Position numbers and translations under genes: made by a program
Shown here: in pieces, positions 9,864-29,590 of the stretch
Position numbering within the stretch: position 1 is the first letter of the stretch
Layout: the number at the start of each line of letters is the position of its first letter
Notes under the pieces: generated by a model
Told to the model about the DNA's origin: nothing
The model's input: the letters and a program-made list of their open reading frames with translations, nothing else
Databases searched by the model: none
NCBI GenBank assembly: GCA_045605425.1
Contig: JAZUQA010000002.1
Coordinates: 358,715 to 390,714 of the forward strand
Source: Acutalibacteraceae bacterium
GTDB lineage: Bacteria; Bacillota; Clostridia; Oscillospirales; Acutalibacteraceae
Direction of reading: 5' to 3'
Length of the DNA: 32,000 nucleotides

Positions 9864-9900
9864 AAAAATCAAGGGCAAAAATTCACTGCCCTTGATTTTT
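9864..9900. terminator. Bidirectional terminator between convergent genes
   Basis: AAAAATCAAGGGCA (9864-9877) / TGCCCTTGATTTTT (9887-9900), with an A-run on one side and a T-run on the other. Confidence 0.75.
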
Positions 9901-10781: not shown

Positions 10782-10803
10782 AAAACAGCCTCCTTTTTAG
10801 CCA

Positions 10804-11070: not shown

Positions 11071-11081
11071 TTTTCCACCTT

Positions 11082-11336: not shown

Positions 11337-11339
11337 AAG

Positions 11340-12392: not shown

Positions 12393-12434
12393 TATTATCC
12401 TTCCCTTGCGTTATAAGTTTGTAAAGGTCAAGAT

Positions 12435-12617: not shown

Positions 12618-12629
12618 AATATTCCTCCG

Positions 12630-13496
12630 TTACACAAGCATTCTTGCAATAATCGTTCTGTTTCCAAACATGTCTCGTCTTACATCAGTTATTTGTAGCA
12701 TCTGTCCACAATCGAATAATACTTCACTTTCGTAGTGTTGTGCGTGACTTAAATAACCAACATAAGCACCATTCGCTCCTTCAGGAACTGATATTTCATA
12801 TCTGATTTCTCCACCAAACGCATCCTCTCTATTCAGGCTTGTACTCATAAAACCATCATCGCTTATAATGTTACCTATTAGTTCCTCATCGGTTGCATTC
12901 GCATAATTGCCAAGCGAACTACGCGAAGCACCTCTATATACGGTACAAGACTGAGGGATACTGCTTTGACTTAAAGCACTATGTATTAAAGATGCTCTCT
13001 CGTGATTTCCGGCATCAAAATCAGATTCCAATCCTCTTAAAACAGCGTTAATATTAACATATGAAGTGCCTGTATAATCTCTTATGGCTGATCGTTCAGA
13101 AGGCGATAGATTGTCCGACCATTCTTTACCCGCCAATTTTACTGTTGCATTATTATCATTTCCTGACAAGGAATTAGTTGTGTTTGATGCAGGATTAGAA
13201 GTTGGTGGTGGAGTTCCACCGGCAAAATTAACATTCTCATATTCTTGCAAACTTTTCACAAGGAGTGCAACATATTTTTCTCCTTGTAAAAGCGTTTTTA
13301 AGATTGTATTTAACGACTTTGAGCAATCGTTTACTACATCGCCTAAGTCCTTATACTTTTTATCATTCCAACCGTTTCCAAGTTGCTGATATTTTGTAGA
13401 TATTGAAGCTTTTGTTGTTTCGATACTATCTATTGCAGTTTGCATATTCTTTACAGTGTACAATAAAGTATTCAAATCAGAATTAACTACACTCAA
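12630..13496 (-). CDS. Polymorphic toxin: WXG100/LXG-like N-terminal domain + R-S-E ADP-ribosyltransferase domain
   Basis: The C-terminus carries the C3/VIP2-type motifs AIRDYTGTSYVNINAVLRG, TVYRG (Arg), GFMSTSL (S-T-S) and HYESEVLF (E-x-E). The N-terminus has GWNDKKY and QEYENVNF, then a Pro/Thr linker. TTG start after GAGGTGA. Confidence 0.85.
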   Translation of the reverse strand: MSVVNSDLNTLLYTVKNMQTAIDSIETTKASISTKYQQLGNGWNDKKYKDLGDVVNDCSKSLNTILKTLLQGEKYVALLVKSLQEYENVNFAGGTPPPTSNPASNTTNSLSGNDNNATVKLAGKEWSDNLSPSERSAIRDYTGTSYVNINAVLRGLESDFDAGNHERASLIHSALSQSSIPQSCTVYRGASRSSLGNYANATDEELIGNIISDDGFMSTSLNREDAFGGEIRYEISVPEGANGAYVGYLSHAQHYESEVLFDCGQMLQITDVRRDMFGNRTIIARMLV

Positions 13497-13554
13497 AATA
13501 TCACCTCGGATTCATCCATCAATCATAATTCCTTGTTCGTTCTTTTGGGAATTA

Positions 13555-13592
13555 GCCATATACACAAAGGTGTGAACCTCTGTGTATATGGC
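13555..13592 (-). promoter_or_regulatory. Perfect 12-bp hairpin between the ATPase and toxin genes (processing or attenuation element?)
   Basis: GCCATATACACA (13555-13566) / TGTGTATATGGC (13581-13592) with a 14-nt loop. No U-tract follows on the transcribed (minus) strand. Confidence 0.4.
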
Positions 13593-13604
13593 ATATCCAC
13601 ACAT

Positions 13605-16600: not shown

Positions 16601-17990
16601 TTCCGCATTTACTTCCGTTTCTTAAGATGTTTCTTAATTCACTGAGGGTTCTTTCATCAAAGCCTTTAGGAAAGTCAAATAATACAACCAGTTCAACATT
16701 AAGAGTGTAATCAGGAGTATTTCGTGCATAATCAAATATGTTCTCATACTGGTTACCTAATTTATCTTGCAAAATATTTTCAATTTTCTCATTAAGTTTT
16801 CTTACTTTTTCTACCACTTCATCTTTACTAATATATATTTTTTCTCCGAATAACTCGGGGAGTTTTTTCTTAGCATCAAAAAAAGGAGAAATACTATTGC
16901 CTCTATTTTCTGGGTCAACAATGGTATATGTTAGTTTCTCTACAGGACATGATGATAGAAAGCTATACATCATAGAATGAAGTAAGCTTTGAACTACAGA
17001 ATTATTACTGTTATCATTTTTTATCATCCAAACAGGTGCATTGCGAGTGGATGTCATTATTGGGAATCTTATTGCACCATCATAAATAAGTCTTGAGCAT
17101 TTTTCTTTAATTATCGAGGCTACAATTTTTGACTGAACAAAATATTCAACTGGATACTCAACATAGTACATATTCATAACTTCATCTAAAATTTCGTTAG
17201 ATGAGTTTACTTTGTACACGGATTTTGAGTAGTTTGACATTATTGCAGCTAAATAGTCAACAAACTCATCCGGTAACACATCATCAAGTGATGTGCATAT
17301 TCTATCAGCTACTTTATCAAGAGTTGCGAGATGGTTATTCTCAAAATTGGATATCTCTGTTTTATGTCTTTCTACCATGATTCCGCGCTGCGTGAAGTAT
17401 GTTTCTTTTAATGAGGCAAGATTCTCCTCGGTTATCGGTGGTAAAACTTCTTCAATTTCCTTAACAAAAGCAGCAACTGTATTGCGAAGCACAATTAGTT
17501 CTTCATAATCTTTTTTTCTCTGACTGGAAAAAAGATAATTCAAACCATTTATTAAACCAGGGAGAATATCTTCCGAATACTTTTTGAAAAGCGAATTAAA
17601 AGAAGTCTTGATTTCATCCAATGCAGAGAAATAATCAGAAGTATCTGTATACTTCTCACTTGTAGTGTCAGCTAACAATTCCTCTTTCTTTTTCTTTGTT
17701 TTCACATAATACTTATCAACTTTCGACAATTTCTCATCCAGCTTGTCTATTTCGGAAAGTATTCTTTTTGCATCAGCTATAGTCTGTCTTGATTTTTTCT
17801 GCACATTAGAGCAATTATTCTTGTATGTGCTGTCTAAGCTTGATAAAGCATTACTGTGTTTGTTTAACAGCAGTCTTTTGTCCTTATCATAATTTGTTTG
17901 AGTTGTATTTATCAGTGTTTCAGAAGAATCTGCAAACTTATTCAAATCAGAAACAAGTGCAATTATTTCGCTTTGTGCTAACGCTTTCAT
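13605..17990 (-). CDS. FtsK/SpoIIIE-family (EssC/EccC-like) multi-domain ATPase, apparently soluble (1461 aa)
   Basis: One canonical module: Walker A GATGSGKST, Walker B ILVIMDEFQ, and FGIHLLMATQ. Two upstream paralogous degenerate modules (VDPENRGNSISPFFD..LRNILRNGSKCGIYTLISY and ADCEQRGNSIIPFLD..LTNILRNGNKCGVFTIICY). One downstream degenerate module (LLICGSNERMA, FGIHFVVTS). The N-terminal ~300 aa are coiled-coil-like. No hydrophobic TM stretch or FHA-like region is visible. Confidence 0.85.
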   Translation of the reverse strand: MKALAQSEIIALVSDLNKFADSSETLINTTQTNYDKDKRLLLNKHSNALSSLDSTYKNNCSNVQKKSRQTIADAKRILSEIDKLDEKLSKVDKYYVKTKKKKEELLADTTSEKYTDTSDYFSALDEIKTSFNSLFKKYSEDILPGLINGLNYLFSSQRKKDYEELIVLRNTVAAFVKEIEEVLPPITEENLASLKETYFTQRGIMVERHKTEISNFENNHLATLDKVADRICTSLDDVLPDEFVDYLAAIMSNYSKSVYKVNSSNEILDEVMNMYYVEYPVEYFVQSKIVASIIKEKCSRLIYDGAIRFPIMTSTRNAPVWMIKNDNSNNSVVQSLLHSMMYSFLSSCPVEKLTYTIVDPENRGNSISPFFDAKKKLPELFGEKIYISKDEVVEKVRKLNEKIENILQDKLGNQYENIFDYARNTPDYTLNVELVVLFDFPKGFDERTLSELRNILRNGSKCGIYTLISYLPNFDGSRSREYEQALQSVVDLSTVITQNGENFSLRGLPILYHSMPEKVEFAKFFSKYMLIFEGIKNRGIAFSPLIRKLVDARDSMELDAHIEQICEMMKSYEKAYAQVPEINTLFPSLVTLGNVMYPSDIFSDSIGYQTIVDRFGAEKKSETENSSFVELPLTFDLRNSFNLLLNCPEENNKGMLDFTHHVIWSFLSFMPITKVNVCIADCEQRGNSIIPFLDFRKRSSETFDQKIYTSQEQIYDRLQKINAQIDEFIQEKLGNRYKDILDYNLNTPNRAEPITLLLLYDFPSGMDGRCLDLLTNILRNGNKCGVFTIICYNPNITFSRYESIDERLEQISKYCASIDYKDGHYGLLPYNLQINTPASLSFNTIDSFVKEYVEKSETIKKQGLSFKDIIAEDLFSFESSKSLKIPVGVGDGDSIINITIGEGSSHHGLIAGATGSGKSTLLHTLIMSSMLHYSPEQLHLYLMDFKSGTEFKVYESVKLPHIQLLALDAMQEFGESILENLVAEMEHRGSLFKDAGQTSLKGYTQVTGQALPRILVIMDEFQILFNDSTNRKVAMNCAELTKRIVTEGRAFGIHLLMATQSTKVISDLTLSHGTIEQMRIRIGLKCGENDARYLFSDENDSKALAMMKGPIGTAVMNLDYTEQSNIGFRAAYCDDNTQREYLKLISETYSESPYKLQTFEGGRTTQLSDYFTENSITRTSELPAKIHMGTLIKVAPPFSITIDKKKKHNLLICGSNERMANTVSNNYMISALLNQNATVYCIDGDSLVGDDSSADFYDAISNCSDNFKIASNRGDIINFINEVYQNYQAWKKQNSDDVIFVIIKNLQFLDIVKSMFKGDYIDESEFISEEPEKDIAVDPIAAMNAIANFSSSRGNDDNMSVGEKLLKMIADGSGFGIHFVVTSLEYQTVRECMYYGENILNKFPERIIFSLGANDADNLIENVSVAGLRDNTVYFTDGVKNTFQMKPYITPSANEVKKLFD

Positions 17991-18024
17991 GGTTGTCTTC
18001 CTTTCTTAGGAATTTTTAATTGAA

Positions 18025-19179
18025 TTATTTTTCTTCTAATTCAAAATTACATTTACCTTCACAATCTTTCCCAAACCCAACAACTAATGAAGTGGTAACC
18101 TGTAACGGATAACTGAAAATTTCTACCATTTCACCGCCTATGGCAGGGTCACTTGTATTGCAAATAAGTGTATATTGTTTAAGATTGTTTAACAGACGAG
18201 GAATATACTCTTCGTTGTTAGAATTTAAAATGTCAATAATAAGTTTTATTCCTATACTTGTTATAAAGTTAATATCAACGGAAATACCAGGTTCAAATTT
18301 TACGCTCTCAACATTTTCTTGATTTGAATATACGTGATGATTTGCTTCAACACGACCTGAAAGGTCACCACTACCCAATGCACACTTATAACAAGGCATG
18401 TTTTTGTTGGGAAGGTGATAAAAAATTTCTCCAGCATACGCTCTTTCCCAAAATCCGATAGATATAAAAGCTGCGTCAAAATAAATTGCGATTTTATTTG
18501 CATAAACATCAGCTGTTCTGTTATCTCCACAACCGACAAATATTGTCTCAAAAGGAACGCACATCTTATCAAGAATATCCTTGGGAATATTCTGAATAAT
18601 TCCGCCAAAAGTCTTAATATTTGCTTTTGGATTAATATTCAAAATCTTTCTTTTAAGTGCATTTACCTTTAAATCTCCAACATCTTCAATGCCACATTGA
18701 TGGCGACATACATTGTGGTACTCAAGAGTGTCTGCATCACATAAAACATACTTTTCAACACCTGCTCGGGCCAATTCCATAGCAACTAAACTGCCAACAG
18801 AACCACAACCGATAATTACAGCACATTTTTTCTTCATAATATCTGTTTCAAGAATACCTTTATTTCTTGAAAAAATGCTCTGATATAAACCATACGATTC
18901 GGTTATTACTTTCTCTCCACACCAAAAGAATTCGATACTTTCATTAGTAATTACACCACAGAAACCATCAATGACAGGGGCACTATCTTCAGGAAGAATA
19001 TCACCAAGATACTCACCTTTGTCGGATAATTCATTGGGAAACACATTGAAAATTCCAGTATCTTCAAAGTATTTACCATATAATTTCATACACTGTTTAT
19101 TGTGCAGTTGTTCTTCGGAAATAAAAACGGTAAGAGGGATATCTTCACCAAAGAAATTTTTAGGGCGCTTAATATTCAT
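18025..19179 (-). CDS. E1-like (ThiF/MoeB/UBA-type) adenylyltransferase
   Basis: Rossmann motif AVIIGCGSVGSLVAMELARAGV, then LCDADTLEYHNVCRHQ (the D.D....N..RQ signature) and PCYKC. ATG at 19179 lies 4 nt after the JAB stop. An extra domain of about 110 aa sits at the N-terminus. Confidence 0.8.
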   Translation of the reverse strand: MNIKRPKNFFGEDIPLTVFISEEQLHNKQCMKLYGKYFEDTGIFNVFPNELSDKGEYLGDILPEDSAPVIDGFCGVITNESIEFFWCGEKVITESYGLYQSIFSRNKGILETDIMKKKCAVIIGCGSVGSLVAMELARAGVEKYVLCDADTLEYHNVCRHQCGIEDVGDLKVNALKRKILNINPKANIKTFGGIIQNIPKDILDKMCVPFETIFVGCGDNRTADVYANKIAIYFDAAFISIGFWERAYAGEIFYHLPNKNMPCYKCALGSGDLSGRVEANHHVYSNQENVESVKFEPGISVDINFITSIGIKLIIDILNSNNEEYIPRLLNNLKQYTLICNTSDPAIGGEMVEIFSYPLQVTTSLVVGFGKDCEGKCNFELEEK

Positions 19180-19183
19180 ATAA

Positions 19184-20188
19184 TCAGTCCTCGTTTCTGT
19201 TAAATCTAATAATTTTAATAACAGAGTCAACAACTCCGGATTGCTTTCTTGCTTTTATTTTTATACCGCTGTCTTTTTCACGTTCAGCTTTTGCTCTACC
19301 ATATGCTTCGGTAAAAAGACCTCTTTGATACTTATAGCATTTATTATCATAGGAAAGCGTAATACTTTCATCATCAACAATTAACATAAAGTACAACTTT
19401 GTTGTTTTATCAATAGTTTCTTGATAAACTGTAAGATAGTTGTTTTCAAGTGAAATAGCAGTTTCAATGTTAAGTGTCTCTGCCATAAAGGTTAAATCAT
19501 CTACGATTTCATCAATTAAGTCTTCTTGGATCTCCTCATTAACAGGTGACTCACTTGTTTGTATTTCTGAACACTCATAATCTTTTAATTTCGGTAAGAT
19601 GAATTTCATAAATGATTCCAAACTTACTGATTTATGGTATCCATCATTAATATTTCTGGTTCTATTCGATGAACCAAGAAGATTCTCCATAATAGTGCCA
19701 AAACGTTCTTGTGTTTTAAATTTCAGTAGATCATCTGGAATTAAATTATCTCCAACATCATATTCGATTTTTTTATACCTACAGGGGTAAGCAACATGAT
19801 ACATTGTGATTCTAAAGTTAGGGTCAATATTTACCAATGCGGAAATCGCACCTTCATTTCGCATAGAAGCATATTTGAAGTTTGTACCATCATCAGTTGA
19901 TGAGAACTGGTCAAAAGACCCCGGGTGACGATGCCACAAGCCTATCAATGTAAGTTGCTTGTCATACAAATTAGCTATTTTGTTTATCAAATGTTGCGTA
20001 TATTTTTGATCATATTCAAAATAAGCAACCTCAAAAACTGATTTTGGGCCGGGGTCTATAGCTTCAATTATGTACCACGTATCATCTTGCACGGTTCCTA
20101 AAAACAAACCACCGGTTTCTGTTTTAATTTTTTCAGTTGTTTCTGCCAAAACAGAGGTGTATGCTCTATTTGAAAAAACTACTCTCAT
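19184..20188 (-). CDS. JAB/MPN+ (JAMM) metalloisopeptidase with an unknown C-terminal domain
   Basis: ETGGLFLG (Glu) plus LWHRHPGSFDQFSSTD, which equals H-x-H-x7-S-x2-D. GGAGG RBS before ATG 20188; the upstream alternative start in the ORF track is unlikely. Confidence 0.85.
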   Translation of the reverse strand: MRVVFSNRAYTSVLAETTEKIKTETGGLFLGTVQDDTWYIIEAIDPGPKSVFEVAYFEYDQKYTQHLINKIANLYDKQLTLIGLWHRHPGSFDQFSSTDDGTNFKYASMRNEGAISALVNIDPNFRITMYHVAYPCRYKKIEYDVGDNLIPDDLLKFKTQERFGTIMENLLGSSNRTRNINDGYHKSVSLESFMKFILPKLKDYECSEIQTSESPVNEEIQEDLIDEIVDDLTFMAETLNIETAISLENNYLTVYQETIDKTTKLYFMLIVDDESITLSYDNKCYKYQRGLFTEAYGRAKAEREKDSGIKIKARKQSGVVDSVIKIIRFNRNED

Positions 20189-20266
20189 ATTATTAAACCT
20201 CCAGCCTAAAAGTAAAACCTCCAAACTCTCATATACTTAGCAAGAGAGTTTGAAGGTTTAGTAATT

Positions 20267-20821
20267 TTAATAATTACCTTCCATTGCGACATCGTCGCCG
20301 ATTTCACCGTTTAACCACATCTCGCAAAGAATAATCCACTTGCAAGCCCAACTCAATGCTGAAGCAGCAGAAGTAGACTGTGTCTTATCTCCTTTAAAAT
20401 ACTTCGGGTCAGCGGTACAAATAAAATATTCTTCATTACGCCCGAAATGATCTTTATAGATGTGTGGAAGACCAAGTCCAAATCCTCTGCGACAAACTTC
20501 ATCATAGTTATTGTTATAAGTATCCATAACAATAGGCATCATTTTGTCAGCTACATCTTTAAGTCTTGGACTAAGTGGAAGGATTTGGACAGTTCCACCA
20601 TACTCATATTCACTGCCAACATGAGGATGTGAATTTTTATAAATAAGCATTATATCCCACACCATGCCACCAGCTCCGGTAGGCTGAACCTTTCCTCTCC
20701 AATATAATCTACCAGAACCATCCTGCAACTGGTTTATGGTAAATGAAGGGAAGAATTTTTTCATTGCGGCAACTTCCATCTGATAAAGTTGAGGGTCACT
20801 TTGATACCAATAATAAGCCAT
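20267..20821 (-). CDS. E2-like (UBC-fold) protein, prokaryotic type
   Basis: N-terminal helix, then RLYWRGKVQP...VWDIMLIYKNSHP (E2-like beta-meander). LPHIYKDHFGRNEEYFIC resembles an HPN-type loop followed by the catalytic Cys. The gene sits directly before JAB and E1. Confidence 0.55.
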   Translation of the reverse strand: MAYYWYQSDPQLYQMEVAAMKKFFPSFTINQLQDGSGRLYWRGKVQPTGAGGMVWDIMLIYKNSHPHVGSEYEYGGTVQILPLSPRLKDVADKMMPIVMDTYNNNYDEVCRRGFGLGLPHIYKDHFGRNEEYFICTADPKYFKGDKTQSTSAASALSWACKWIILCEMWLNGEIGDDVAMEGNY

Positions 20822-20832
20822 CGTGTGCCTCC

Positions 20833-21006
20833 TTATGCCAATTTTCCATCAGGAACCTGAATTCCTGAAAGTCCCTGGTCCATAGCATCATCTTTCTTTT
20901 CGACTTCACCACTTGCTGTAACCACAACAGGTTCACCTGTACGTAAAGCTTCAGCCAATGCTCTTCTTCTTGCAGCAACAGCATCATTGTTTACATTGTT
21001 ATCCAT
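20833..21006 (-). CDS. small protein (57 aa, below ORF-track cutoff) in the position a Ubl gene occupies in Bil-type operons
   Basis: GGAGGT RBS 9 nt before ATG 21006. Translation: MDNNVNNDAVAARRRALAEALRTGEPVVVTASGEVEKKDDAMDQGLSGIQVPDGKLA. Stop TAA at 20835-20833, 11 nt before the E2-like start. Confidence 0.55.
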   Translation of the reverse strand: MDNNVNNDAVAARRRALAEALRTGEPVVVTASGEVEKKDDAMDQGLSGIQVPDGKLA

Positions 21007-21030
21007 TTTTATATACCTCCAACACGAATA

Positions 21031-21918
21031 TTATGCAGCGTTATTTCCTGTAGCTGAAAAGCTTCTAATAATTTCACCGTTTTCATTAATTGAAGCAACA
21101 CAGCCTCTAAGAACAGCTTCTGCTCCTTCTTCGCCCTTTTCCTGAACCATACGGGCATAAGAGTTATCAGCAAGTTCGCTCTTCTGATTAAGAAGTGTTT
21201 CAAGATCAACACCTCTGTTCTGATTACGAATCATTGTGTATTCCATATAGTCAGCCATCTGCTGGAGAGCAGCTTGGTCTGATTCAATAAAGCCGGAAGT
21301 TCTCTTAATATAAATAATGTATTCAATTGTATTCTTTACAGTATAGTAGAAGCTCTGAACTATAAGTTTTAAAATTCCCCAAATGATTGAGAGAACTGTG
21401 AGGAATCCGAACTGACCAGAAATAGCGATTTTGATTACGTCCCAAAGTAATGAGAAGAAATATTTTGCTGCGCTTAAGAATACGCCACCAATACCGGCAC
21501 CAACAAGGCCCATCATTGCAGCACTACCTGCATCTCCGCTTTCTGCTCCGAGGATTATACCTATAATCAATCCGGTAACTATACCAACAAGAGATACAAT
21601 AAACTGGAACATAATTTTCGCTTTATTTTTCTTAAGGTCTTCAACGTTTGCTGCAACTAATTGCTGACAGCAGTCATAACAAATGGCTTTATTCTTATAC
21701 TGGTCATCATTTACACCATAGTTATCAAAACAATCTTGACATATGTATTTGCCACATCTTGCACATTTAGCTACTGCAGGTTCATCTTTGTGATAGTAAC
21801 ATGCAGGGCCATTGAATGACGGTTTTGCATTTGCAGGCGGAGTGAATGTGGGTGTTGGGGGTGTAAAGGTAGGAACAGCATCAGTTCCTGCATTAGTTTT
21901 CATTTGCTCGTTATCCAT
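21031..21918 (-). CDS. Membrane protein: Pro-rich N-terminus, B-box/zinc-ribbon Cys cluster, about 3 TM helices, cytoplasmic tail
   Basis: CYYHKDEPAVAKCARCGKYICQDCF...AICYDCC. Hydrophobic helices IMFQFIVSLVGIVTGLIIGIILGA, MMGLVGAGIGGVFLSAA and FLTVLSIIWGILKLIV. AGGAGG RBS. Besides the distal M48 peptidase, this is the only polytopic membrane protein of the operon. Confidence 0.7.
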   Translation of the reverse strand: MDNEQMKTNAGTDAVPTFTPPTPTFTPPANAKPSFNGPACYYHKDEPAVAKCARCGKYICQDCFDNYGVNDDQYKNKAICYDCCQQLVAANVEDLKKNKAKIMFQFIVSLVGIVTGLIIGIILGAESGDAGSAAMMGLVGAGIGGVFLSAAKYFFSLLWDVIKIAISGQFGFLTVLSIIWGILKLIVQSFYYTVKNTIEYIIYIKRTSGFIESDQAALQQMADYMEYTMIRNQNRGVDLETLLNQKSELADNSYARMVQEKGEEGAEAVLRGCVASINENGEIIRSFSATGNNAA

Positions 21919-21955
21919 GTTTTTATCCTCCTAATTAATTAACCTTAGTTACAGG

Positions 21956-22225
21956 TTAAAATTTAACTTTGTTGTACTGGTCTAAAGATTGAGCCAGTTT
22001 TTCTAATTTAGGCAAAGCTGCATTTAAAGTATCAATAGGTGTTGCTGTTAATCTAGCTATTTGCTGCATTAACATATTGAACTGAGCAGCTTTAGCATCA
22101 TCCCAATTAGATGTTGCAGACATTCCCGATTTGATACCACTACTTATTCTTTCAATATCACGAATGGTATTGGAAATATCTTTTTTCATTTCCCTGATTG
22201 TTTCAGGAGAGGCTTTTACTGCCAT
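21956..22225 (-). CDS. WXG100-like small helical protein (89 aa)
   Basis: AAGGAGG RBS. Central NWDDAKAAQF (W-x-D) and C-terminal DQYNKVKF-stop. Paralogous to the other W-x-D proteins in the operon. Confidence 0.7.
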   Translation of the reverse strand: MAVKASPETIREMKKDISNTIRDIERISSGIKSGMSATSNWDDAKAAQFNMLMQQIARLTATPIDTLNAALPKLEKLAQSLDQYNKVKF

Positions 22226-22238
22226 TTAAATACCTCCT

Positions 22239-22520
22239 TTAAAAATTAACATTTTCGTATTCGCCTACAGCCTGTAGTAAATCGTTAAGTTTTACCATAC
22301 ATTCCTGAAGTTCGGAAATCGGTTTTGTTAATGCACTACAGCATTCTTCAACGATACCACCTAAAGCAGCGTATTTTTGGTCTTTCCAACCACCAGAACC
22401 TGCTTGTTGATAACTTCGCTGTAAACTACGTGATGCTGATTCCAACTCGTGAATTGATGTTTTGCAACAACCAATGCCACCTTGTATAGCAGCGCTTTCA
22501 ACAGATACACCACTTGCCAT
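22239..22520 (-). CDS. WXG100-like small helical protein (93 aa), stand-alone copy of the toxin N-terminal domain
   Basis: AGGAGG RBS before ATG 22520; the ORF track extends to 22574. GGWKDQKYAALGGIVEECCSAL and a C-terminal GEYENVNF-stop align with the toxin N-domains. Confidence 0.7.
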   Translation of the reverse strand: MASGVSVESAAIQGGIGCCKTSIHELESASRSLQRSYQQAGSGGWKDQKYAALGGIVEECCSALTKPISELQECMVKLNDLLQAVGEYENVNF

Positions 22521-22574
22521 TTTTGGAAACCTCCTGACTTGATTTTTATATTGCAAGGCTTTCGCCCAAAACAA

Positions 22575-23321
22575 TTACAAAGACGTACTCAAATACTCTT
22601 CAATACTTGAGATGCAATTATCTATAGCACTCTTGTTGCCCTGTGCTTTTTCTGATGAATTGCTCTCAAATTTTTTTGTCGCAGCTGTATATGCAGACAA
22701 ATCGCTCTCAACTCTATTGAAAGTTGATTTCATTCTTTCTAGTTTAACCTTAATTTTATTGCATCTGTTTTTTTGTATAGCTCGTTCATTTTCGCATTGT
22801 GATTTTTTTGACTTACAGTCTGATATTTCTTTTTGTAGTTGTTGTTTCTTTTCCTCTGAATGTCTGACTTCATCTTCCAATTGTTCACACCGCATTTCAC
22901 ACTGAGATACCTGTTGCTCCAATGCATTTATTTGCTCTTGAATTGCTTGTCTCGTTTCATCGTCTTCTGTTTCCGCAAGACGAGCACGTAAAGAAGCTAT
23001 CTGTGAATTCAAAGAAATTATTTGTTGTCTTAAAGTGGCAATATTATTTTTGATTTGGGGTATCCTTTTTATTAAAGAATTATATTCATTAGTTGCTTGA
23101 TTTGCTTTTAATTCGAGTTGCTCGATTTGCTTGCTTAATTCTTCTATTTCACGCTCTAATTGTGTGATTTCTCCTTTTGTTCTATTAATTTGTATCTTAC
23201 ACTCCGACGTTACACTGTCAGCCTGATTAGTTGCTCTTAATGAGATGCCGTTTATATCTGTTTGAAAAGTAGATAACGCATCTTTAACTGTCTTTAATGC
23301 TTCTGTTGATACATCTACCAT
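22575..23321 (-). CDS. Cys-rich coiled-coil protein (248 aa)
   Basis: Long heptad-like Q/E/L-rich sequence. The N-terminal helix VDVSTEALKTVKDALSTFQTDINGI resembles the toxin N-termini. Nine Cys residues are scattered in the coil. Confidence 0.65.
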   Translation of the reverse strand: MVDVSTEALKTVKDALSTFQTDINGISLRATNQADSVTSECKIQINRTKGEITQLEREIEELSKQIEQLELKANQATNEYNSLIKRIPQIKNNIATLRQQIISLNSQIASLRARLAETEDDETRQAIQEQINALEQQVSQCEMRCEQLEDEVRHSEEKKQQLQKEISDCKSKKSQCENERAIQKNRCNKIKVKLERMKSTFNRVESDLSAYTAATKKFESNSSEKAQGNKSAIDNCISSIEEYLSTSL

Positions 23322-23331
23322 AGTAAAGCTC

Positions 23332-23559
23332 CTAATATTTTTCTGATGCTATTTTCTCAAACTTTTCGATTGAAGAACAACATCTGTCCGCAGTGACCAT
23401 AACATCTTTTGATTGATTTGCAATCTCAGTTATAGAAGAGGATAATTCAGCATATTTTTCATCCTTCCATATAGCCGAAGCCTTTGAAATTCCTGTACTT
23501 AGCTTTTTTATTGAAGATTGAAAAACATGCATTTCTTTTCTGATATTTGCGTATCCCAT
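23332..23559 (-). CDS. WXG100-like small helical protein (75 aa; alternative GTG start at 23571)
   Basis: GGTGAG RBS before ATG 23559. Contains IWKDEKYAEL (W-x-D-x-K-Y), a vicinal CC, and ends ...KIASEKY. Confidence 0.65.
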   Translation of the reverse strand: MGYANIRKEMHVFQSSIKKLSTGISKASAIWKDEKYAELSSSITEIANQSKDVMVTADRCCSSIEKFEKIASEKY

Positions 23560-23560
23560 A

Positions 23561-23905
23561 TTACTCACCACTCACTTGATCCATTTTTCCATTTAACCAA
23601 CATTCATCTAATTGATACGGAAAAACATCTAATTGTCTTATCGTATAGTGTGTATTAGGGTTATAGTCGAAAAATAAAATTAAAGACATATAGGTATTCC
23701 AAGACATTACTCTTTTTAAACTTTCAATAGAGTTATATGTTTGTCTCGACACACCAATCGCATTAGCAACTTCGTCTTGTGTAGCATTTGCAGCACCCCT
23801 CAATGCGGGTAACGCTTTTGTCAAACTGTTAATTAAACGATCTTTGTCTTCTTTGCTAAAATGCCAATAGTCCATATAATCTTTTCTTTTTCTTATCTGG
23901 TTCAT
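23561..23905 (-). CDS. XRE-type HTH regulator, first gene of the operon (114 aa)
   Basis: ATQDEVANAIGVSRQTYNSIESLKR is a helix-turn-helix. The start lies 25 nt from the left inverted repeat of the recombinase segment. Confidence 0.7.
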   Translation of the reverse strand: MNQIRKRKDYMDYWHFSKEDKDRLINSLTKALPALRGAANATQDEVANAIGVSRQTYNSIESLKRVMSWNTYMSLILFFDYNPNTHYTIRQLDVFPYQLDECWLNGKMDQVSGE

Positions 23906-23930
23906 TTATATATCCTTCAACCAACGTATA

Positions 23931-23959
23931 ATTTTCGTAGAGTATTCTCCTTGACGAAA
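23931..23959. repeat. Left 29-bp inverted repeat (IR-L)
   Basis: ATTTTCGTAGAGTATTCTCCTTGACGAAA is the exact reverse complement of 25358-25386. Confidence 0.9.
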
Positions 23960-23963
23960 ATTC

Positions 23964-24000
23964 AAAGACACAACCCTTTATACTTAGAGTTGTGTCTTTT
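23964..24000 (-). terminator. Hairpin terminator after the recombinase gene
   Basis: AAGACACAAC (23965-23974) / GTTGTGTCTT (23989-23998). On the minus strand it is followed by TTTGAATTTT. It sits just inside IR-L. Confidence 0.6.
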
Positions 24001-24032
24001 TATTGACCATATTTTTGACGGGAAATAGAAAT

Positions 24033-25157
24033 TTAAATTGCTATTGAATTTAGTTTTTCCATAGACATTCTTTTGAGTTGCATAGAGGAGTGCACATATT
24101 TATCAAGCGTGATTTTCACACTGGAATGACCTAATATTTCACTAAGTGTTTTTACATCAAAGCCAACTTCAACACATCGGGTTGCAAAAGTGTGTCGTAA
24201 CGAATGAAAATTCGCATCAGAAATCATGCCTTGTTTCAAATAAGATTTAAATCGATTTTGCATCGTTCGCGGTTCTACAATGTCAATAGAATTACCCGAT
24301 AAAAGATAGGCGTTGGGTATTGTAATAAAGGGTATCATTTTTTCTAACAAAAAATCAGGTAATGGTATTACTCTGACAGAATTATAAGTTTTAGGGTCTG
24401 TAATTATAATTTTAGTTTTTGATGTGCAATTAAAATCATCACATTGTAACCTTTGCATAGTTGCCTCAATTTTTAACGTTTTATCAGCTATAGAAATATT
24501 TTTGCATTTTAGAGCACACAATTCTCCAATGCGTATTCCTGTATACAAACAAATTAAAATACCTAATTTACATCTATCAATATCGTTTGATATCACTGAT
24601 ATTAGTTTTTGTTCTTCAGAAATACTTAAAACTCGCATTTCATTAGTAGCTTTTCTGATGGGAAGTCTGCTAAAAGTACAGTTTATTATCTCTCCATGAC
24701 TTTGAGCAAATTTGAAAGTTTCTTTTATAATAACCATAATATCTGACATACTTTTGCTTGATAATCCACCACCAAATTTTTTACCATTTTGCATTTTGTT
24801 GGCGATAAAACTTTCAACTAATTCAGTACTGATTTTATTGATTGGATATTTACCGAGCTTGGGTTTTATATGATTTTCAATAATGTTTTTATATCTTATA
24901 TAGGTAGACTCTTTAACAATAAGTTTTTTACTAATAAGCCAATCATCAAGCCACTTACTATATATGGTATTTGATTTAGAGGTAACAAAATTTACAGTTT
25001 GTGTTTGCTCATTAAATAATTTGTTTTTTACTTCGGCATATGTTTTTGCATATAAGTATCGATATTTTGCTTTACCATTTTCATCGTAAAATAAAATATA
25101 TCTTGCTTCCCATCGACCGTCTTTTCTCTTGTAAATGTTTTCACCTGTACGTGGCAT
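24033..25157 (-). CDS. Tyrosine site-specific recombinase / integrase (374 aa)
   Basis: Arm-type N-terminus (ENIYKRKDGRWEARY). Catalytic-domain motifs TGIRIGELCAL (Arg), HSLRHTFAT (H-x-x-R) and LGHSSVKITLDKYVH (His...Tyr). Confidence 0.9.
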   Translation of the reverse strand: MPRTGENIYKRKDGRWEARYILFYDENGKAKYRYLYAKTYAEVKNKLFNEQTQTVNFVTSKSNTIYSKWLDDWLISKKLIVKESTYIRYKNIIENHIKPKLGKYPINKISTELVESFIANKMQNGKKFGGGLSSKSMSDIMVIIKETFKFAQSHGEIINCTFSRLPIRKATNEMRVLSISEEQKLISVISNDIDRCKLGILICLYTGIRIGELCALKCKNISIADKTLKIEATMQRLQCDDFNCTSKTKIIITDPKTYNSVRVIPLPDFLLEKMIPFITIPNAYLLSGNSIDIVEPRTMQNRFKSYLKQGMISDANFHSLRHTFATRCVEVGFDVKTLSEILGHSSVKITLDKYVHSSMQLKRMSMEKLNSIAI

Positions 25158-25301
25158 TATAAAGTTCCTCCGTTTCTTTACATTGACGGATTAATGACCA
25201 TAAATGCAACTTAAATTCGTCAAAACAACTAATTTGTTCATTGTTGTTTTGCTTATAATGAATAAAAATTGTATTTTTATTCAACAAAATAATTGCACAT
25301 A

Positions 25302-25330
25302 TTGACAAATCCGACAACATTATGTATACT
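25302..25330 (+). promoter_or_regulatory. Strong outward-facing promoter inside the invertible segment
   Basis: TTGACA (25302-25307), 17-nt spacer, TATACT (25325-25330). It points toward IR-R, 28 nt away. Confidence 0.65.
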
Positions 25331-25357
25331 TATTTTAACTAATTATTGGAATTTTTC

Positions 25358-25386
25358 TTTCGTCAAGGAGAATACTCTACGAAAAT
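25358..25386. repeat. Right 29-bp inverted repeat (IR-R)
   Basis: TTTCGTCAAGGAGAATACTCTACGAAAAT is the exact reverse complement of 23931-23959. Confidence 0.9.
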
Positions 25387-25399
25387 AATTATTAATTTC

Positions 25400-25423
25400 G
25401 AAGCCGATACAGGCTTCTTTTTT
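25400..25423 (+). terminator. Small intrinsic terminator just outside IR-R
   Basis: GAAGCC (25400-25405) / GGCTTC (25412-25417) followed by T6. It would stop transcripts from the 25302 promoter in the present orientation. Confidence 0.55.
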
Positions 25424-25474
25424 ATTGTACCGAATCCTGAAAATTTTATCGAATGTGTGGATTTTGAGCACTAC

Positions 25475-25523
25475 AAAAGCCCCGTTGAGATTGCAGTAAC
25501 TCTGCTTTCCAAACGGGGCTTTT
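25475..25523. terminator. Hairpin downstream of the 25735..26577 gene
   Basis: AAAAGCCCCGTT (25475-25486) / AACGGGGCTTTT (25512-25523) with a large 25-nt loop. Confidence 0.45.
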
Positions 25524-25734
25524 GTTTTATCTGATAATGTGATATTAAGTTTTCACCTCTATAAATTGCAACCTTGTAATACACATAAATAGACATTAAG
25601 ATAATTCGATAGAAATATTTGAAATATACAGTACATCATTAAGACAATTCCTATTTACCAATCAGTGCATTCCGCACATAGTAGTAAGGGTAAAAACACA
25701 CCAAAAACAGCCCTATTGAAAAAATAAATATTTT

Positions 25735-26577
25735 TTAAGTAAACACTTCATTTAATCTATACCTGCTCACATTGTAGCTATTCTCACGCTCAATGGCACC
25801 GGATTTGACGAGTTCGGTTAATCGCTTCTTTGAAAATGATGTTGAACCGAAATATGCATCAAAATTTGCAACAGGAAGAACAACCCAATCTGTATCCTCT
25901 TGTCGGTTGGCATAGTAATATTTTACGAGAGTTTCAAGTGCATAAGCTGTGCTCGGTGCTGTTGTAAAATTAGTTATCTTTGCTTTCGTTTCTTGGGTCA
26001 GTTCATAATCCTTGTTTTTGAGTTCACCAAGTTCTAAAGCAGATGAAAGTATATCATCAAATCGCAGAATCCAAGCACCTTTGGTTTTGAGATAATAAGT
26101 GTTGAAATGCATACGGGCAACCTTGTCACGCCAAGCAGTATCAAAGTTTTTATCCATAAGAGTATATTTTTCAACCTCTTTTGCCGTAAACTTATCGGGA
26201 TTGCTTATGGCAAATCTCATAGCATTATGGAAATGTCTGTAAAACCAACCTTCACCGTTTTCTGTAACAAGCCCAGGAAACTCGTTGTGGTACTCTCTGA
26301 AATCTGTACTGAACCGCCATTCTTCTTTTTCTTTTGATTTATCCTTATCGGGAATACTGCACCAAGCAGAGATTGCCCGTCTTGCATATTCAATGTCAGC
26401 AGTACCGTTCTTGAACATATATCCTCTTGCAATTATGGTCAGCACCCTCGGAAATCCCTCAAAGCCTTGTATTCCCTCACAGGTAAATCTGCTGAAAAAA
26501 GAGTTATCATTTCTGTTATCACGCTTGTATATCGGTGCTTCCGTGTAAGCCTTAAATTCGGCTATCTCGTTCAGCAT
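25735..26577 (-). CDS. hypothetical protein co-transcribed with the YonO-like polymerase (280 aa)
   Basis: AGGAG RBS 8 nt before ATG 26577; the ORF-track TTG at 26595 is less likely. It overlaps the upstream gene's 3' end. No recognised motif. The C-terminal segment (KKRLTELVKSGAIERENSYNVSRYRL) could be a winged helix. Confidence 0.6.
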   Translation of the reverse strand: MLNEIAEFKAYTEAPIYKRDNRNDNSFFSRFTCEGIQGFEGFPRVLTIIARGYMFKNGTADIEYARRAISAWCSIPDKDKSKEKEEWRFSTDFREYHNEFPGLVTENGEGWFYRHFHNAMRFAISNPDKFTAKEVEKYTLMDKNFDTAWRDKVARMHFNTYYLKTKGAWILRFDDILSSALELGELKNKDYELTQETKAKITNFTTAPSTAYALETLVKYYYANRQEDTDWVVLPVANFDAYFGSTSFSKKRLTELVKSGAIERENSYNVSRYRLNEVFT

Positions 26578-29500
26578 AAGACTTGCTCCTGTCAATAATA
26601 TATTTCTCTGTTTCGGTCAGCAAAATATCAAAGATATATCTTCTGTAGCCTGCCGCAACAACATAGGGTACCGCATCATTCAGCCTGATGATTTTTGAAA
26701 GCAGTTTTCTGCATTCTTCTGTTACAGCTTCTTTGTAATCATAGGTCTTTGATTTGTTTCTGTATGCCAACATCATAGCCGTCATTTCTTCACTGTCATT
26801 TTCAAAATGAAGTGAAGTAAGGTTACGCAATTTGTTCTCGGCATATCTGTCACAGATAATATCAGAAAACACTCTGTCACCGTTGTGTCTGAAATCACAG
26901 AATAAATCAATATAACTTTCAAAATGCTCACCGACAAGATAAGTTTTCAAAAATTGTTCTCTTTCTTCGGGCAGCATAAACTGCCATTTGCACTTTTGCA
27001 TCTGAGTATAGATTTCTTCAATTTCTTCGGGTGTGAAATCGGTAAAGAGTGCATAAAGCTCGTCTGTGTCATAATCATTTTCCTGACCACGCATAAAGAG
27101 AATACGCTCAATATCAGATTTTCTTTCCGGTATATCCGACCTGTTTCTGTTATTACGGATTCTTTTTAAGCAATGCTCATAATCATCCAACAGTGTAGTA
27201 ACTCTGTTTAACTTCTTTTTATCAAGACCTGATTTCCAATCAGGATTCTGAGCAAAAGTGAAAATTTCACTGTCAGGTGCAGTCGGTTCCTTGGCTTTTG
27301 GTGTGTTCCTTTTCAGCTCATAAGCATAAAATGGTAACCTTTCAAGGTTTGAGCTGACTTTCGACCAATCTGTATTTTTGAAAAACTCCTTGAACTGCTC
27401 GTCATAAGTCTTCTCGTACCAAGACCTGCGTTCGTTCTGCTTTTCAATAAGGGACTTGTATTTAAGGAACAGACTTTTCGGTGCTCTGTTGGTTACAAGA
27501 TATTCCGAAAGGTCAGGCTTAACACCGCTTTTTGCTGAGTCAATTTCCAAGCCTGTAAGAATGGCCAGAGTTTCTGTTTCTTTCCTGTACTGTGCTTTTT
27601 TACCTTTTGCATTCTCATCATAAGCTAAAATACTTCTGTTAAGTGCCGCATTGGAAATTTGTCCCACACGGGAAGAAAAAGTATTTTTAACAGTTTCAAA
27701 TCTTGCTTCCCAATCCTGTGCATCGGATACTATTGGTTCCTCTGTGGGTATGAATAACAAAGGTAACGGATTATCACTTTTGCCGTAATACTCAGGCTCC
27801 GTTTCTTTTGTGTAAAGATATGAAATGATAATTCTGTCTGCAATTGTCTTTACCATATCACCGTCAAAATCTGCACCGCCAAGTCTCATAGGTATATCAG
27901 AGCTATCCGATACCATAATGACATCGGTTAAATGGCTGAAATATTTATCTCTGTAATATCCGACATCTTTTAAAGGTCGCACCTGAACACTTTCGTTTTT
28001 AGATATATGCGGATTGCGAAGAAGTGAATATTTGTAATCTGTTCCATAGCTGTTACCGGGAGCATAAACATAATTTCCGGACAATTCTTCATCAATAATA
28101 TCTGCAAATTTTCTGCTGCCATCAGCAAGAAAAGCAAAAAGCGACATTAAGTCAGCAGATAAATATCTGTTGTCACCCTGAACAAAAAGCTGTCCTATTG
28201 CATATTTCCTTAAAATATTCTCTGCAATATCGTCTATGTCTTTAGAGAAGAAAGGCTCATCAATGAGCAATGAGTTTTTGCTAATCAGCCTTGCTTTGAT
28301 TTTTAAATCCTCATCAGCATCATCCAAATGCTTTGCGTAATAATCTATTCTGTATTTTCTGTTGTTGCAGTAATCGTAATATGCCTGCTCCGTTGCTTTT
28401 GTCAGCCACTCTCTTTTATCACGTGACGGACTTTCTTTCCAGCCTGAAGGCAAATCTTTAGGTCTGAATTTTTCTTCAGGTATTGCAACGGTATTTAAAA
28501 ACTGAAAGTTAAGTTCAGTTAAATTTTCATTTTCACCCTTACCTACATTTGAAATATATAACGAGTGTCTGTACTTTTTACAGCGTTCAAGATAATCGTT
28601 AAAGCTCAATCCATTTTCTTTAAGCCAACCTTTACCCTTGAACATTGTATCGGTAAGAATAAGGTTAATCTTATCAACAGGATGCTCAACACCCCACATA
28701 TCTTTAACGGAATATATACCTAAACTTTTAAGAAATGATTTGAAATCAACCTCGTGTACCATACCTTTTATGTAAGGTAAACGAATCTGAAAAGAAAAAT
28801 GAATATGCTTACCGCAGAACTGTTTATCAATTTCTTTTGCAAATGCAGGAGAGATAAAACCTTCACCGTCGAATGCATCGCAAGTAAATTCAACTTCCTT
28901 TTCGGCACGGTTGTATTTTTTTACTGCCGTATTTTTATCTTTTGATGTAACTGTTACGGCGTGAGTTTTAATAAATCTTTCCCAAGTTTTTATGATAACA
29001 ATGCTGTCTTCATCAAAAAGATGTTTGCTTTCAATTCTTGTACCGCCCGAAAACATAAGTCCGTTGTAAGCGTAAAGCTTACTTAACTGACACAAACCGA
29101 TATTCATATCAAGCTGTATTCTTGATTTAACTTTTTCATAAACATCACTTCTTATGAAAGACAAGCGAGCGTTTCTGCTCATACTTGCAGAGCGTTCAAA
29201 GGCAACAAAGTTTTTCATACCTGTTCCTAAATCAATATTTATTCCCTCGGGACGGAACATTGATTTTGCTTTTAACTGTCTTAAACGGATACGTTCGCTC
29301 TTTGCATCTCTGTCAAAAATTCCACCGAAGTCAATGTAAACTATCACATCAGAGAGGTTAGAAATTTTTGTATCGCTCTTCGGCTGAGTAAATTTATCAG
29401 AAGTTAAAACACTCATTAACTGATAAAACATTGCACAGTCTTCCTGCAAACTGTTTTCTTTATTCATCAAGCACTTTGCAGTTGCACTGTTATTAAGATT

Positions 29501-29590
29501 AAAAATATATGTTTCTTCATTTTGCTTTTCGGCATAAGAGATAATTCCTCTCGCCGAAAGCATCGGTATTTCATAAGTAATATGTGCCAT
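26552..29590 (-). CDS. YonO / cellular-RdRP-like two-barrel RNA polymerase homologue (1012 aa)
   Basis: MRLGGADFDGDMV matches the (G)GxDxDGD catalytic loop of the eukaryote-type RdRP / phage SPbeta YonO family and the NADFDGD loop of RNAP beta-prime. Large size. GAGGTG RBS. Confidence 0.65.
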   Translation of the reverse strand: MAHITYEIPMLSARGIISYAEKQNEETYIFNLNNSATAKCLMNKENSLQEDCAMFYQLMSVLTSDKFTQPKSDTKISNLSDVIVYIDFGGIFDRDAKSERIRLRQLKAKSMFRPEGINIDLGTGMKNFVAFERSASMSRNARLSFIRSDVYEKVKSRIQLDMNIGLCQLSKLYAYNGLMFSGGTRIESKHLFDEDSIVIIKTWERFIKTHAVTVTSKDKNTAVKKYNRAEKEVEFTCDAFDGEGFISPAFAKEIDKQFCGKHIHFSFQIRLPYIKGMVHEVDFKSFLKSLGIYSVKDMWGVEHPVDKINLILTDTMFKGKGWLKENGLSFNDYLERCKKYRHSLYISNVGKGENENLTELNFQFLNTVAIPEEKFRPKDLPSGWKESPSRDKREWLTKATEQAYYDYCNNRKYRIDYYAKHLDDADEDLKIKARLISKNSLLIDEPFFSKDIDDIAENILRKYAIGQLFVQGDNRYLSADLMSLFAFLADGSRKFADIIDEELSGNYVYAPGNSYGTDYKYSLLRNPHISKNESVQVRPLKDVGYYRDKYFSHLTDVIMVSDSSDIPMRLGGADFDGDMVKTIADRIIISYLYTKETEPEYYGKSDNPLPLLFIPTEEPIVSDAQDWEARFETVKNTFSSRVGQISNAALNRSILAYDENAKGKKAQYRKETETLAILTGLEIDSAKSGVKPDLSEYLVTNRAPKSLFLKYKSLIEKQNERRSWYEKTYDEQFKEFFKNTDWSKVSSNLERLPFYAYELKRNTPKAKEPTAPDSEIFTFAQNPDWKSGLDKKKLNRVTTLLDDYEHCLKRIRNNRNRSDIPERKSDIERILFMRGQENDYDTDELYALFTDFTPEEIEEIYTQMQKCKWQFMLPEEREQFLKTYLVGEHFESYIDLFCDFRHNGDRVFSDIICDRYAENKLRNLTSLHFENDSEEMTAMMLAYRNKSKTYDYKEAVTEECRKLLSKIIRLNDAVPYVVAAGYRRYIFDILLTETEKYIIDRSKSYAERDSRI

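Follow-up and report, generated by a model that had tools for sequence, protein, structure and literature searches.

A putative self-contained promoter inverton that encodes its own tyrosine recombinase, beside a toxin operon of an Acutalibacteraceae bacterium

A 32,000-nucleotide stretch of DNA from an Acutalibacteraceae bacterium (assembly GCA_045605425.1, contig JAZUQA010000002.1, positions 358,715 to 390,714), hereafter the window, contains a segment at 23931-25386 that is bounded by inverted repeats and encodes a tyrosine recombinase. This segment is very probably a self-contained invertible promoter cassette that gates the adjacent operon, which encodes type VII secretion system (T7SS)-like, ubiquitin-like and toxin functions. 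An earlier reading made from the letters alone (the sequence-only reading) had proposed an invertible promoter with its recombinase inside and now in the OFF state, and this proposal is backed by conservation of the unit, by inversion in relatives, by a terminator on the OFF side and by junction bases from the window's own lineage. The elements of the unit and its neighbours, in coordinates of the window, are as follows.

9900-23560, minus strand: remainder of the operon, from domain searches; presumed to be co-transcribed
23561-23905, minus strand: XRE-type helix-turn-helix (HTH) gene, from domain search; first gene of the operon, its ATG 25 nt outside the left repeat
23931-23959: left inverted repeat (IR-L), putative core recombination site at the terminator end of the unit, adjoining the operon; reverse complement of 25358-25386
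23964-23999, minus strand: putative intrinsic terminator hairpin just inside IR-L, 3' of the recombinase gene; 14-bp stem, T runs on both strands
24004-24021, minus strand: candidate arm-type repeats just after the recombinase stop codon; CCGTCA-N6-TGGTCA
24033-25157, minus strand: tyrosine recombinase, 374 aa, three domains; PF00589 E = 3.9e-23, PF14659 E = 4e-13
25184-25200, minus strand: candidate arm-type repeats 27-43 nt upstream of the recombinase ATG; TGGTCA-N5-CCGTCA
25302-25330, plus strand: predicted outward promoter of sigma-70/sigma-A type, directed through the right repeat; TTGACA-17-TATACT, 11/12 matches
25358-25386: right inverted repeat (IR-R), putative core recombination site at the promoter end of the unit; perfect partner of IR-L
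25400-25423, plus strand: putative OFF-side terminator, 14 nt beyond IR-R; hairpin 25400-25417 and T run
25473-25525: putative strong bidirectional terminator hairpin between the switch and a convergent gene for a 286-aa protein; -32.8 kcal/mol, z = -7.0

The repeats form the perfect inverted pair that the sequence-only reading had described: IR-L, ATTTTCGTAGAGTATTCTCCTTGACGAAA, matches the reverse complement of IR-R at 29/29 positions, and the match grows to 32 nt if one mismatch is allowed. They enclose a segment of 1456 bp, in which the terminator, the recombinase gene and the outward promoter were each found where they had been placed. IR-L consists of the half-site TTTCGTAGAG and the inverted half-site TTTCGTCAAG (its reverse complement) with a central spacer between them. 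No further copy of the repeat is present in the window with up to 3 mismatches permitted, and 100 dinucleotide-preserving shuffles of the window gave no repeat match, even with 3 mismatches. The 27-nt core of IR-L is also found in relatives that are inverted in nature. Chance origin of the repeats and assembly artefact were both considered and rejected. The arrangement of half-site, spacer and half-site, which is kept in the family described below, identifies IR-L and IR-R as the likely recombination sites bounding an inverton.

The putative promoter comprises TTGACA at 25302-25307 and TATACT at 25325-25330 on the plus strand, separated by 17 nt, and is the top promoter-like site within 23300-25900, with a predicted transcription start at approximately 25337. 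As had been claimed, it is directed out through IR-R into a small terminator, where a hairpin at 25400-25417 is followed by a T run (-10.4 kcal/mol, z = -4.2), supporting an assignment of the cassette to the OFF state. At the other end of the unit, the hairpin at 23964-23999 has a folding energy of -19.3 kcal/mol (z = -7.3). The start codon of the operon at 23905 lies 25 nt from IR-L, and the claim that the gap holds no promoter facing the operon was borne out, with no promoter-like site found on the minus strand between 23906 and 24000. Folding of the predicted ON-state 5' untranslated region revealed no significant structure, and an Rfam scan returned the transfer-messenger RNA (tmRNA) as its sole match, with none within the switch. 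The promoter spacer at 25308-25324 (AATCCGACAACA...) is kept in the family alignment well beyond the needs of a promoter, and the -35 region overlaps a GTCAA motif that is common to the arm-type repeats; this conserved spacer and -35 region may be an operator that lets the recombinase or the HTH protein modulate the promoter.

In the proposed mechanism, the recombinase would synapse the two core sites and flip the 1.46-kb segment. Both arm clusters would travel with the segment, leaving substrate and product equivalent in layout, and since both clusters lie inside the segment the reaction is expected to be reversible without an Xis-like excisionase factor. In the OFF state the promoter would read into the terminator at 25400-25423 and then into the second, bidirectional one; the operon would lack a nearby promoter of its own, and the terminator inside the unit would insulate it from transcription of the recombinase gene. 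Inversion to the ON state would set the promoter approximately 81 nt upstream of the HTH ATG, counted from the end of the -10 hexamer, from where it would transcribe the HTH gene and the approximately 14-kb T7SS-like/ubiquitin-like/toxin operon. Expression of the operon would then become phase-variable across the population.

Inversion in relatives and in the lineage of the window

The unit inverts in natural gut populations of relatives. At least five pairs of independent assemblies possess flanks that are 96-100% identical and a unit that is inverted exactly at the repeats. Two Hadza gut metagenome-assembled genomes (MAGs; L014 and L015), which carry a version of the window's T7SS/ubiquitin-like operon, share flanks of 99.2% and 99.9% identity around a 1468-bp unit that is 99.9% identical and lies in opposite orientations. 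A scan of metagenome contigs with the exact 27-nt core yielded 27 stretches, and a scan of metagenome contigs with the repeat plus its HTH-side flank (34 nt) yielded no match. The unit is flipped between flanks of 99.2-100% identity when L106 is compared with L098 and L116, and is likewise flipped between near-identical flanks in L105 compared with L093 and in L117 compared with L108. Flank swaps of a more diverged kind are present in L017/L020, L030/L031, L039/L052, and L062 compared with L074/L077. Several of the inversion pairs carry the identical 27-nt core. The k-mers used for these assemblies presumably exceed the repeat in length (k = 77 according to the Hadza record names), which would mean that each orientation is backed by sequence spanning the repeat.

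Five contigs from Logan encode an HTH protein that is 100% identical to that of the window, and each of the five begins where IR-L meets the interior of the unit, 54-55 nt before the HTH start codon. Relatives that share this core invariably have C as the first base inside the promoter-side repeat and T at the corresponding position of the terminator-side repeat. Two of the contigs (L001 and L003) begin with C, the repeat and TATAC..., corresponding to the ON junction; a third (L004) begins with T, the repeat and TATAC..., corresponding to the OFF junction; and the remaining two (L002 and L005) begin at the repeat itself. Logan assemblies are built with k = 31, and since the 29-nt repeat is shorter than this, a contig break at the repeat implies two alternative continuations in the sample. 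The junction bases and breaks are suggestive of the window's own operon existing in both states in human samples.

A family of related cassettes in gut Clostridia

A census of the family was made by a profile scan of the recombinase against GTDB species representatives, which gave 80 loci. These are from Clostridia, including Oscillospiraceae, Lachnospiraceae, Ruminococcus, Eubacterium, Anaerotignum and Dorea, and the closest match in the scan is an uncultured Faecalibacterium MAG; a few family MAGs are labelled Bacteroidales, possibly through binning errors or transfer. Homologues of the recombinase number in the thousands, and strikingly many of them lie on contigs that are just as long as the unit (1.43-1.47 kb). 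In approximately 70 of the 80 loci the recombinase gene is surrounded by inverted repeats of 18-33 nt in a unit of 1.41-1.49 kb, and the succession of repeat, recombinase, promoter and repeat is conserved down to 42% recombinase identity. The repeats follow the pattern TTTCG(T/C)nnAG, a variable 5-7 nt, and CTnn(A/G)CGAAA, resembling the half-sites and asymmetric spacer of lox, FRT and att cores. Spacers vary between units, and differences between the two copies within a unit fall mostly in the inner half-site, with the centre identical. The repeat runs far beyond the core into the flanks in L019 (52-nt), L071 (99-nt) and L075 (331-nt), and these extensions may have arisen by duplication of flank sequence or from misassembly at an invertible segment. 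Plasmids searched by distant blastn with 23300-25900 gave no match.

A promoter-like sequence of the form TTGACA-(16-18)-TATAAT is present on the outward strand with at least 11/12 matches in 59/68 units, and with 12/12 in 32; the distance between the end of the -10 hexamer and the repeat is 15-60 nt in 58 of the 59. No unit of the 68 has a promoter of 11/12 or better on the recombinase strand, and shuffled 5' regions attain 11/12 in 0.7% of trials. A family alignment shows that both hexamers and part of the spacer (AATCCGACAACA) are kept amid diverged DNA. The internal terminator, by comparison of folding energies, is kept in structure and not in sequence: the 55 nt inside the repeat have a mean of -17 kcal/mol, against -8 kcal/mol for coding-region controls (p = 1e-17). 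This comparison was used in place of a simple stem and T-run finder, which missed most of the imperfect internal hairpins (17/68 found).

The flanks of the family loci are asymmetric in the manner expected of a switch beside one operon. Most loci have, on one flank, a run of outward genes that starts 5-160 nt beyond the repeat, and on the other flank converging genes or none. Homologues of the HTH gene adjoin the unit and point away from it in approximately 30 related loci by tblastn, and in 27 loci such a homologue is the first outward gene, 5-70 nt from the repeat, on whichever side the operon lies. A terminator-like hairpin occurs in the first 110 nt beyond the repeat in 22/48 loci on the non-operon side and in 0/50 on the operon side; its usual starting point is 3-15 nt past the repeat, which also holds for the window. 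Classification by flank assigns 35 loci to the OFF orientation and 15 to the ON orientation, and gives 6 with outward operons on both sides. Taken from sequence, the prevalence of the promoter together with the restriction of the terminator to the non-operon side is strong evidence that the promoter in the segment would drive the adjacent gene in one orientation only. The six loci with outward strings of genes on both sides are L034, L040, L056, L060, L070 and L076, and in these the cassette may toggle two operons instead of switching one ON and OFF.

These same flanks bear on whether the segment inverts for some other output, such as a short RNA, an antisense transcript toward the genes for the 286-aa and RNA-dependent RNA polymerase (RdRP)-like proteins, or expression of the recombinase that depends on orientation. 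The present orientation would yield a transcript of approximately 90 nt ending at 25423, and no promoter of the recombinase was identified, both of which would suit such an output. A dedicated output on that side is, however, at odds with the terminator that meets the non-operon transcript in those 22/48 loci, with a non-operon flank that is not conserved across the family, and with an operon side that always presents an outward gene within tens of nt and never a terminator. An output of this kind is very improbable.

The outward genes of the family encode FtsK/HerA-type ATPases; Hsp70 with FtsK; sets of FHA, PP2C and Ser/Thr kinase proteins; Prok-RING and M78 proteins; a type IV coupling protein; a 1812-aa SpaA-type adhesin; an SLH/VWA surface protein; an F5/8-type-C protein; a polysaccharide pyruvyl transferase; DUF6020 and DUF6056 membrane proteins; and a P-type ATPase. 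Such cargo, made up of surface structures and conflict systems, is typical of phase variation. A cultured strain with a related unit is Ruminococcus albus 7 (DSM 20455), on plasmid pRUMAL02 (NC_014825.1, approximately 197.9-199.2 kb; positions 3858-5154 and 5861-6940 of locus L092). Its unit has a 20-nt repeat, TTTCGCAAAGTCTGTGATTT, together with TTGACA-17-TATAAT facing outward and a terminator beyond the repeat, corresponding to OFF; on the far side of a 154-aa gene, another, paralogous integrase gene points the opposite way, an arrangement that could be a double switch.

The recombinase, its candidate arm sites and alternative readings

The recombinase comprises an N-terminal beta3-alpha domain (AP2/arm-binding-like), a SAM-like core-binding domain and a catalytic domain. 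R209, H318, R321, H344 and Y354 are invariant across 31 relatives, and the HxxR and GHS...Y motifs line up with their counterparts in Tn1549 Int; this catalytic residue set places the enzyme, by its sequence, in the tyrosine recombinase superfamily. Domain searches gave tyrosine-recombinase domains only and no resolvase (serine recombinase) domain. NCBIfam models matched below threshold only (integron integrase 49 bits against 265, XerC 73 against 335, XerD 59 against 330 and XerA 92 against 220), and identity as an integron integrase or Xer protein was rejected, with all scores far under the curated cut-offs. The recombinase, the HTH protein, the 286-aa protein and the RdRP-like protein were left unnamed by NCBIfam and PADLOC, and exact-protein look-ups of the recombinase and the 286-aa flank protein returned no record.

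The nearest solved structures by sequence are the Tn1549 Int entries 6EN0, 6EMY and 6EMZ. An AlphaFold model of the recombinase (mean predicted local distance difference test score, pLDDT, of 78.5) has at its N-terminus (residues 8-57) strands at 8-10, 16-24 and 30-37 and a helix at 40-57, followed by the SAM-like domain. The top fold matches of the model are Tn1549 Int and full-length lambda Int, the latter aligning over 367-377 columns. The AP2 Pfam match to the N-terminal domain is weak (E = 0.0012), and at the level of the modelled fold this domain appears to be an arm-binding domain as in the heterobivalent Int family. Candidate sites for such a domain are present in the family: CCGTCA occurs within -71 to -16 of the recombinase ATG in 59/64 units, and most units possess direct repeats of the form CCGTCA-N~6-(C/A/G)GTCA, approximately 11-13 bp apart on the same strand, on both sides of the gene. 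One cluster lies 30-50 nt ahead of the recombinase start codon, the other 4-30 nt past the stop codon. By analogy with lambda and Tn916, the CCGTCA/GGTCA clusters are probably arm-type sites for the N-terminal domain.

The recombinase is closest to Tn1549 Int and lambda Int, and its locus belongs to an island that carries MobC, a relaxase and TnpV next to the tmRNA gene; on these grounds it might be the integrase of that mobilisable island, with the repeats incidental or serving integration and excision. The sites are, however, inverted and not direct, and bracket the recombinase gene only; neither lies at an end of the island (the tmRNA gene ends at 6098), and the unit recurs in many unrelated contexts, where it shows inversion and not excision. 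This alternative is barely credible.

Cassette-like replacement of cargo at the recombination site is suggested by comparison with close relatives. The units of L007, L089 and L090 are approximately 88% identical to that of the window at the DNA level, with recombinases of 91-95% identity, and lie beside different cargo: ABC transporters, a kinase and PHP; HTH, TPR and YidD; and HTH with unknown genes. Homology stops 0-3 nt from the outer edge of the repeat (23931 in the window, 8742 in L007, ~1607 in L089 and ~1460 in L090), and in L007 it resumes at the TnpV and DUF6809 genes. Either the sites take part in exchange between elements or cargo is replaced with the conserved cassette acting as a homology arm. 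No half-site-like sequence was found at the far boundary of the cargo (~9862-9900) or elsewhere in the window, and cargo replacement therefore need not be site-specific at both ends. Two MAGs hold two units each: those in CAVFAY01 (L021 and L080) are divergent paralogues with different spacers, and those in CAZENN01 (L016 and L019) are 93% identical with the same repeat.

One alternative is that the unit is primarily a mobile element, resembling an insertion sequence (IS) or a tyrosine-recombinase transposon, that activates neighbouring genes wherever it inserts. Terminal inverted repeats around a single recombinase gene do resemble an IS, many members occur alone on contigs of approximately 1.45 kb (L033 and L091, for example), and the approximately 88% identical units sit beside different cargo with homology that ends at the outer edge of the repeat. 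A segment that occurs in both orientations would likewise be assembled into contigs of that length. Direct target-site duplications are absent, the sequence immediately outside the two repeats being itself inverted-complementary, and the window holds one site pair only. The unit nearly always separates an outward operon, with an HTH gene usually at its head, from a terminator, a consistent placement that disfavours random insertion, and inversion in place between identical flanks has been seen repeatedly. The sequence-only reading had named many identical copies at unrelated sites as the sign of a transposable element, and none such were encountered. Classification as an insertion sequence or transposon was rejected on the lack of flanking direct repeats and the single site pair, with a search for empty sites that was not exhaustive, and a primarily mobile element is considered improbable.

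Several observations weigh against the assignment of the window segment as a simple invertible switch of its operon. The complete inversion pairs are from relatives whose recombinases are approximately 63% identical to that of the window, and the ON state of the window type is represented by a single diagnostic base in two contigs together with contig breaks, with k taken as 31. The approximately 88% identical units with different cargo point to rearrangement or mobility beyond ON/OFF switching. No convincing candidate for a promoter of the recombinase gene was found in family units, and weak promoters may exist inside the 14-kb operon.

Known switches, the gated operon and its island

The cassette resembles the Hin/H segment of Salmonella, and those of Gin, Cin and Pin, in that a recombinase gene and an outward promoter lie inside invertible DNA, between repeats of approximately 26 bp in those systems, and one orientation drives an operon. 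The parallel with the Hin/H segment drawn by the sequence-only reading therefore holds for the logic alone, the enzyme being a tyrosine recombinase that resembles lambda and Tn1549 Int. Hin is a serine recombinase that acts with a Fis-bound enhancer, whereas the cassette has a three-domain tyrosine recombinase, probable arm-type sites and a dedicated OFF-side terminator. Assignment as a Hin/Gin-type DNA invertase was rejected, as the enzyme possesses tyrosine-recombinase domains only. In Escherichia coli fimS with FimB/FimE, Proteus MrpI and ipuS of uropathogenic E. coli, a tyrosine recombinase likewise flips a promoter element to turn an adjacent operon ON or OFF. Fim-type elements are approximately 300 bp long with 9-bp repeats; their recombinases, approximately 200 aa in length, have no N-terminal domain for arm binding, and the corresponding genes lie outside the element. 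The unit described here, in contrast, is 1456 bp long with 29-bp repeats and encodes a 374-aa three-domain enzyme inside. Membership of the Fim-type switches was rejected, with enzyme size, domains, location and repeat length all different. RecV of Clostridioides difficile acts on remote sites, whereas the present enzyme is encoded within its own segment.

Lambda Int and the Int proteins of Tn916 and Tn1549 share with the recombinase three domains, an N-terminal beta3-alpha fold and direct repeats away from the core sites. They integrate and excise between direct sites with directionality set by Xis, whereas here the core sites are inverted and inversion is seen. The integron platform (IntI, Pc and attI) also combines a recombinase gene and a divergent outward promoter at the boundary between backbone and variable cargo, but the cassette has no attC-like cassettes, has an inverted site pair and has been observed to invert. 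The cassette is a combination of the logic of Hin, the chemistry of Fim and RecV, and the enzyme architecture of lambda and Tn1549 Int.

The nearest published precedent found for an enclosed recombinase gene is a fimbrial switch of Providencia stuartii, a putative invertible segment of 844 bp with 14-bp imperfect repeats that encloses a recombinase open reading frame (Sekulovic et al. 2018, PMC5903667). That report mentions the switch in one sentence and leaves the type of recombinase unstated (PMC5903667). It is a single uncharacterised gammaproteobacterial case, smaller and with short imperfect repeats, for which no analysis of a family, promoter or arm sites is reported. In Clostridia, a survey of hCom2 describes inverton 'group 139' with adjacent tyrosine recombinases of 'group 35' (PMC11892184); these invertons are approximately 250 bp long, with the recombinase nearby but outside, and the repeats quoted are approximately 26 nt and approximately 14 nt (PMC11892184). 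Compared by description only, groups 139 and 35 also represent invertible DNA of gut Clostridia linked to tyrosine recombinase or integrase genes. The literature searched, from which most subscription journals were absent, contains no description of the present cassette family, which is large and apparently undescribed in gut Clostridia.

A broader reading, to which we give about equal weight for and against, is that the window contains the first recognised case of a widespread and portable flip-cassette family, in which an enzyme of the heterobivalent Int type has come to act as an invertase and the sites may also mediate cargo exchange. As part of that reading, and at the same even weight, the order of the cassette would be core site, outward promoter, arm sites, integrase-type recombinase, arm sites, terminator and core site. 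If true, the cassette would gate T7SS-like/ubiquitin-like/toxin systems, FtsK/HerA conflict systems, adhesins and polysaccharide genes. Maps of phase variation in the gut microbiota deal chiefly with Bacteroidota and with short invertons that have their recombinases elsewhere, and the locus points to a large class of autonomous switches in Clostridia, among Faecalibacterium, Ruminococcus, Lachnospiraceae and Oscillospiraceae. The repeat span accepted by PhaseFinder is reportedly limited to approximately 750 bp, and a cassette of 1.4-1.5 kb, being probably over the size window of standard inverton callers, would have been missed. Several such switches can operate independently in one genome, as every switch brings its own site-specific enzyme. 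For the window, this would imply that T7SS-like toxin delivery and the E1/E2/JAB enzymes are expressed in part of the population only, which bears on competition between bacteria and on the reading of metatranscriptomes. The cassette is also a compact part (1.46 kb, one protein, 27-bp sites, a consensus promoter and terminators) that may serve as a memory or toggle tool for Gram-positive anaerobes, and would be a natural test case of an arm-binding integrase that runs a reversible reaction without a directionality factor.

The operon beyond the HTH gene encodes a small protein, a coiled-coil protein, WXG100, a B-box protein, E2-like, JAB and ThiF/E1 proteins, a 1461-aa EssC-like FtsK ATPase, an ADP-ribosyltransferase toxin, an LXG-type protein, DUF1292 and an M48 peptidase. 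Scanning of the minus strand revealed neither a strong promoter nor a strong terminator within the operon, and promoter-like matches number 52 against 58.5 expected, with none above 10/12, consistent with a single promoter that would drive the entire ~14-kb operon. Its content (9900-23905) is an unusual pairing of T7SSb-type parts, namely two WXG100-like proteins, the EssC-like ATPase and LXG/ADP-ribosyltransferase toxins, with a ubiquitin-like conjugation set of ThiF/E1, JAB and an E2 that matches E2 models of the cyclic-oligonucleotide-based antiphage signalling system (CBASS) type, plus the B-box zinc-finger protein.

The switch sits in a mobilisable island adjoining ssrA. To the left of the operon lie TnpV, DUF6809 and two unknown proteins, followed by tmRNA and SmpB. 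The tmRNA gene is at 5745-6098 on the plus strand (Rfam, 156.7 bits), just downstream of smpB (4482-4946, plus strand); ssrA is likely to be the integration site of the island, which begins directly after the tmRNA gene, and the island's own integrase is not inside the window. To the right of the switch, genes for the 286-aa protein and a 1012-aa RdRP-like protein converge on it and are followed by MobC and the relaxase. The 1012-aa protein (26552-29590, minus strand) had no NCBIfam, PADLOC or PDB sequence match, and matches PF05183, the eukaryotic-type cellular RdRP, with E = 1.9e-15; it is a candidate YonO-like single-subunit RNA polymerase. The RdRP-like protein and the 286-aa protein are kept together in two other elements, at 3084-6107 of L007 and 1020-4004 of L034.

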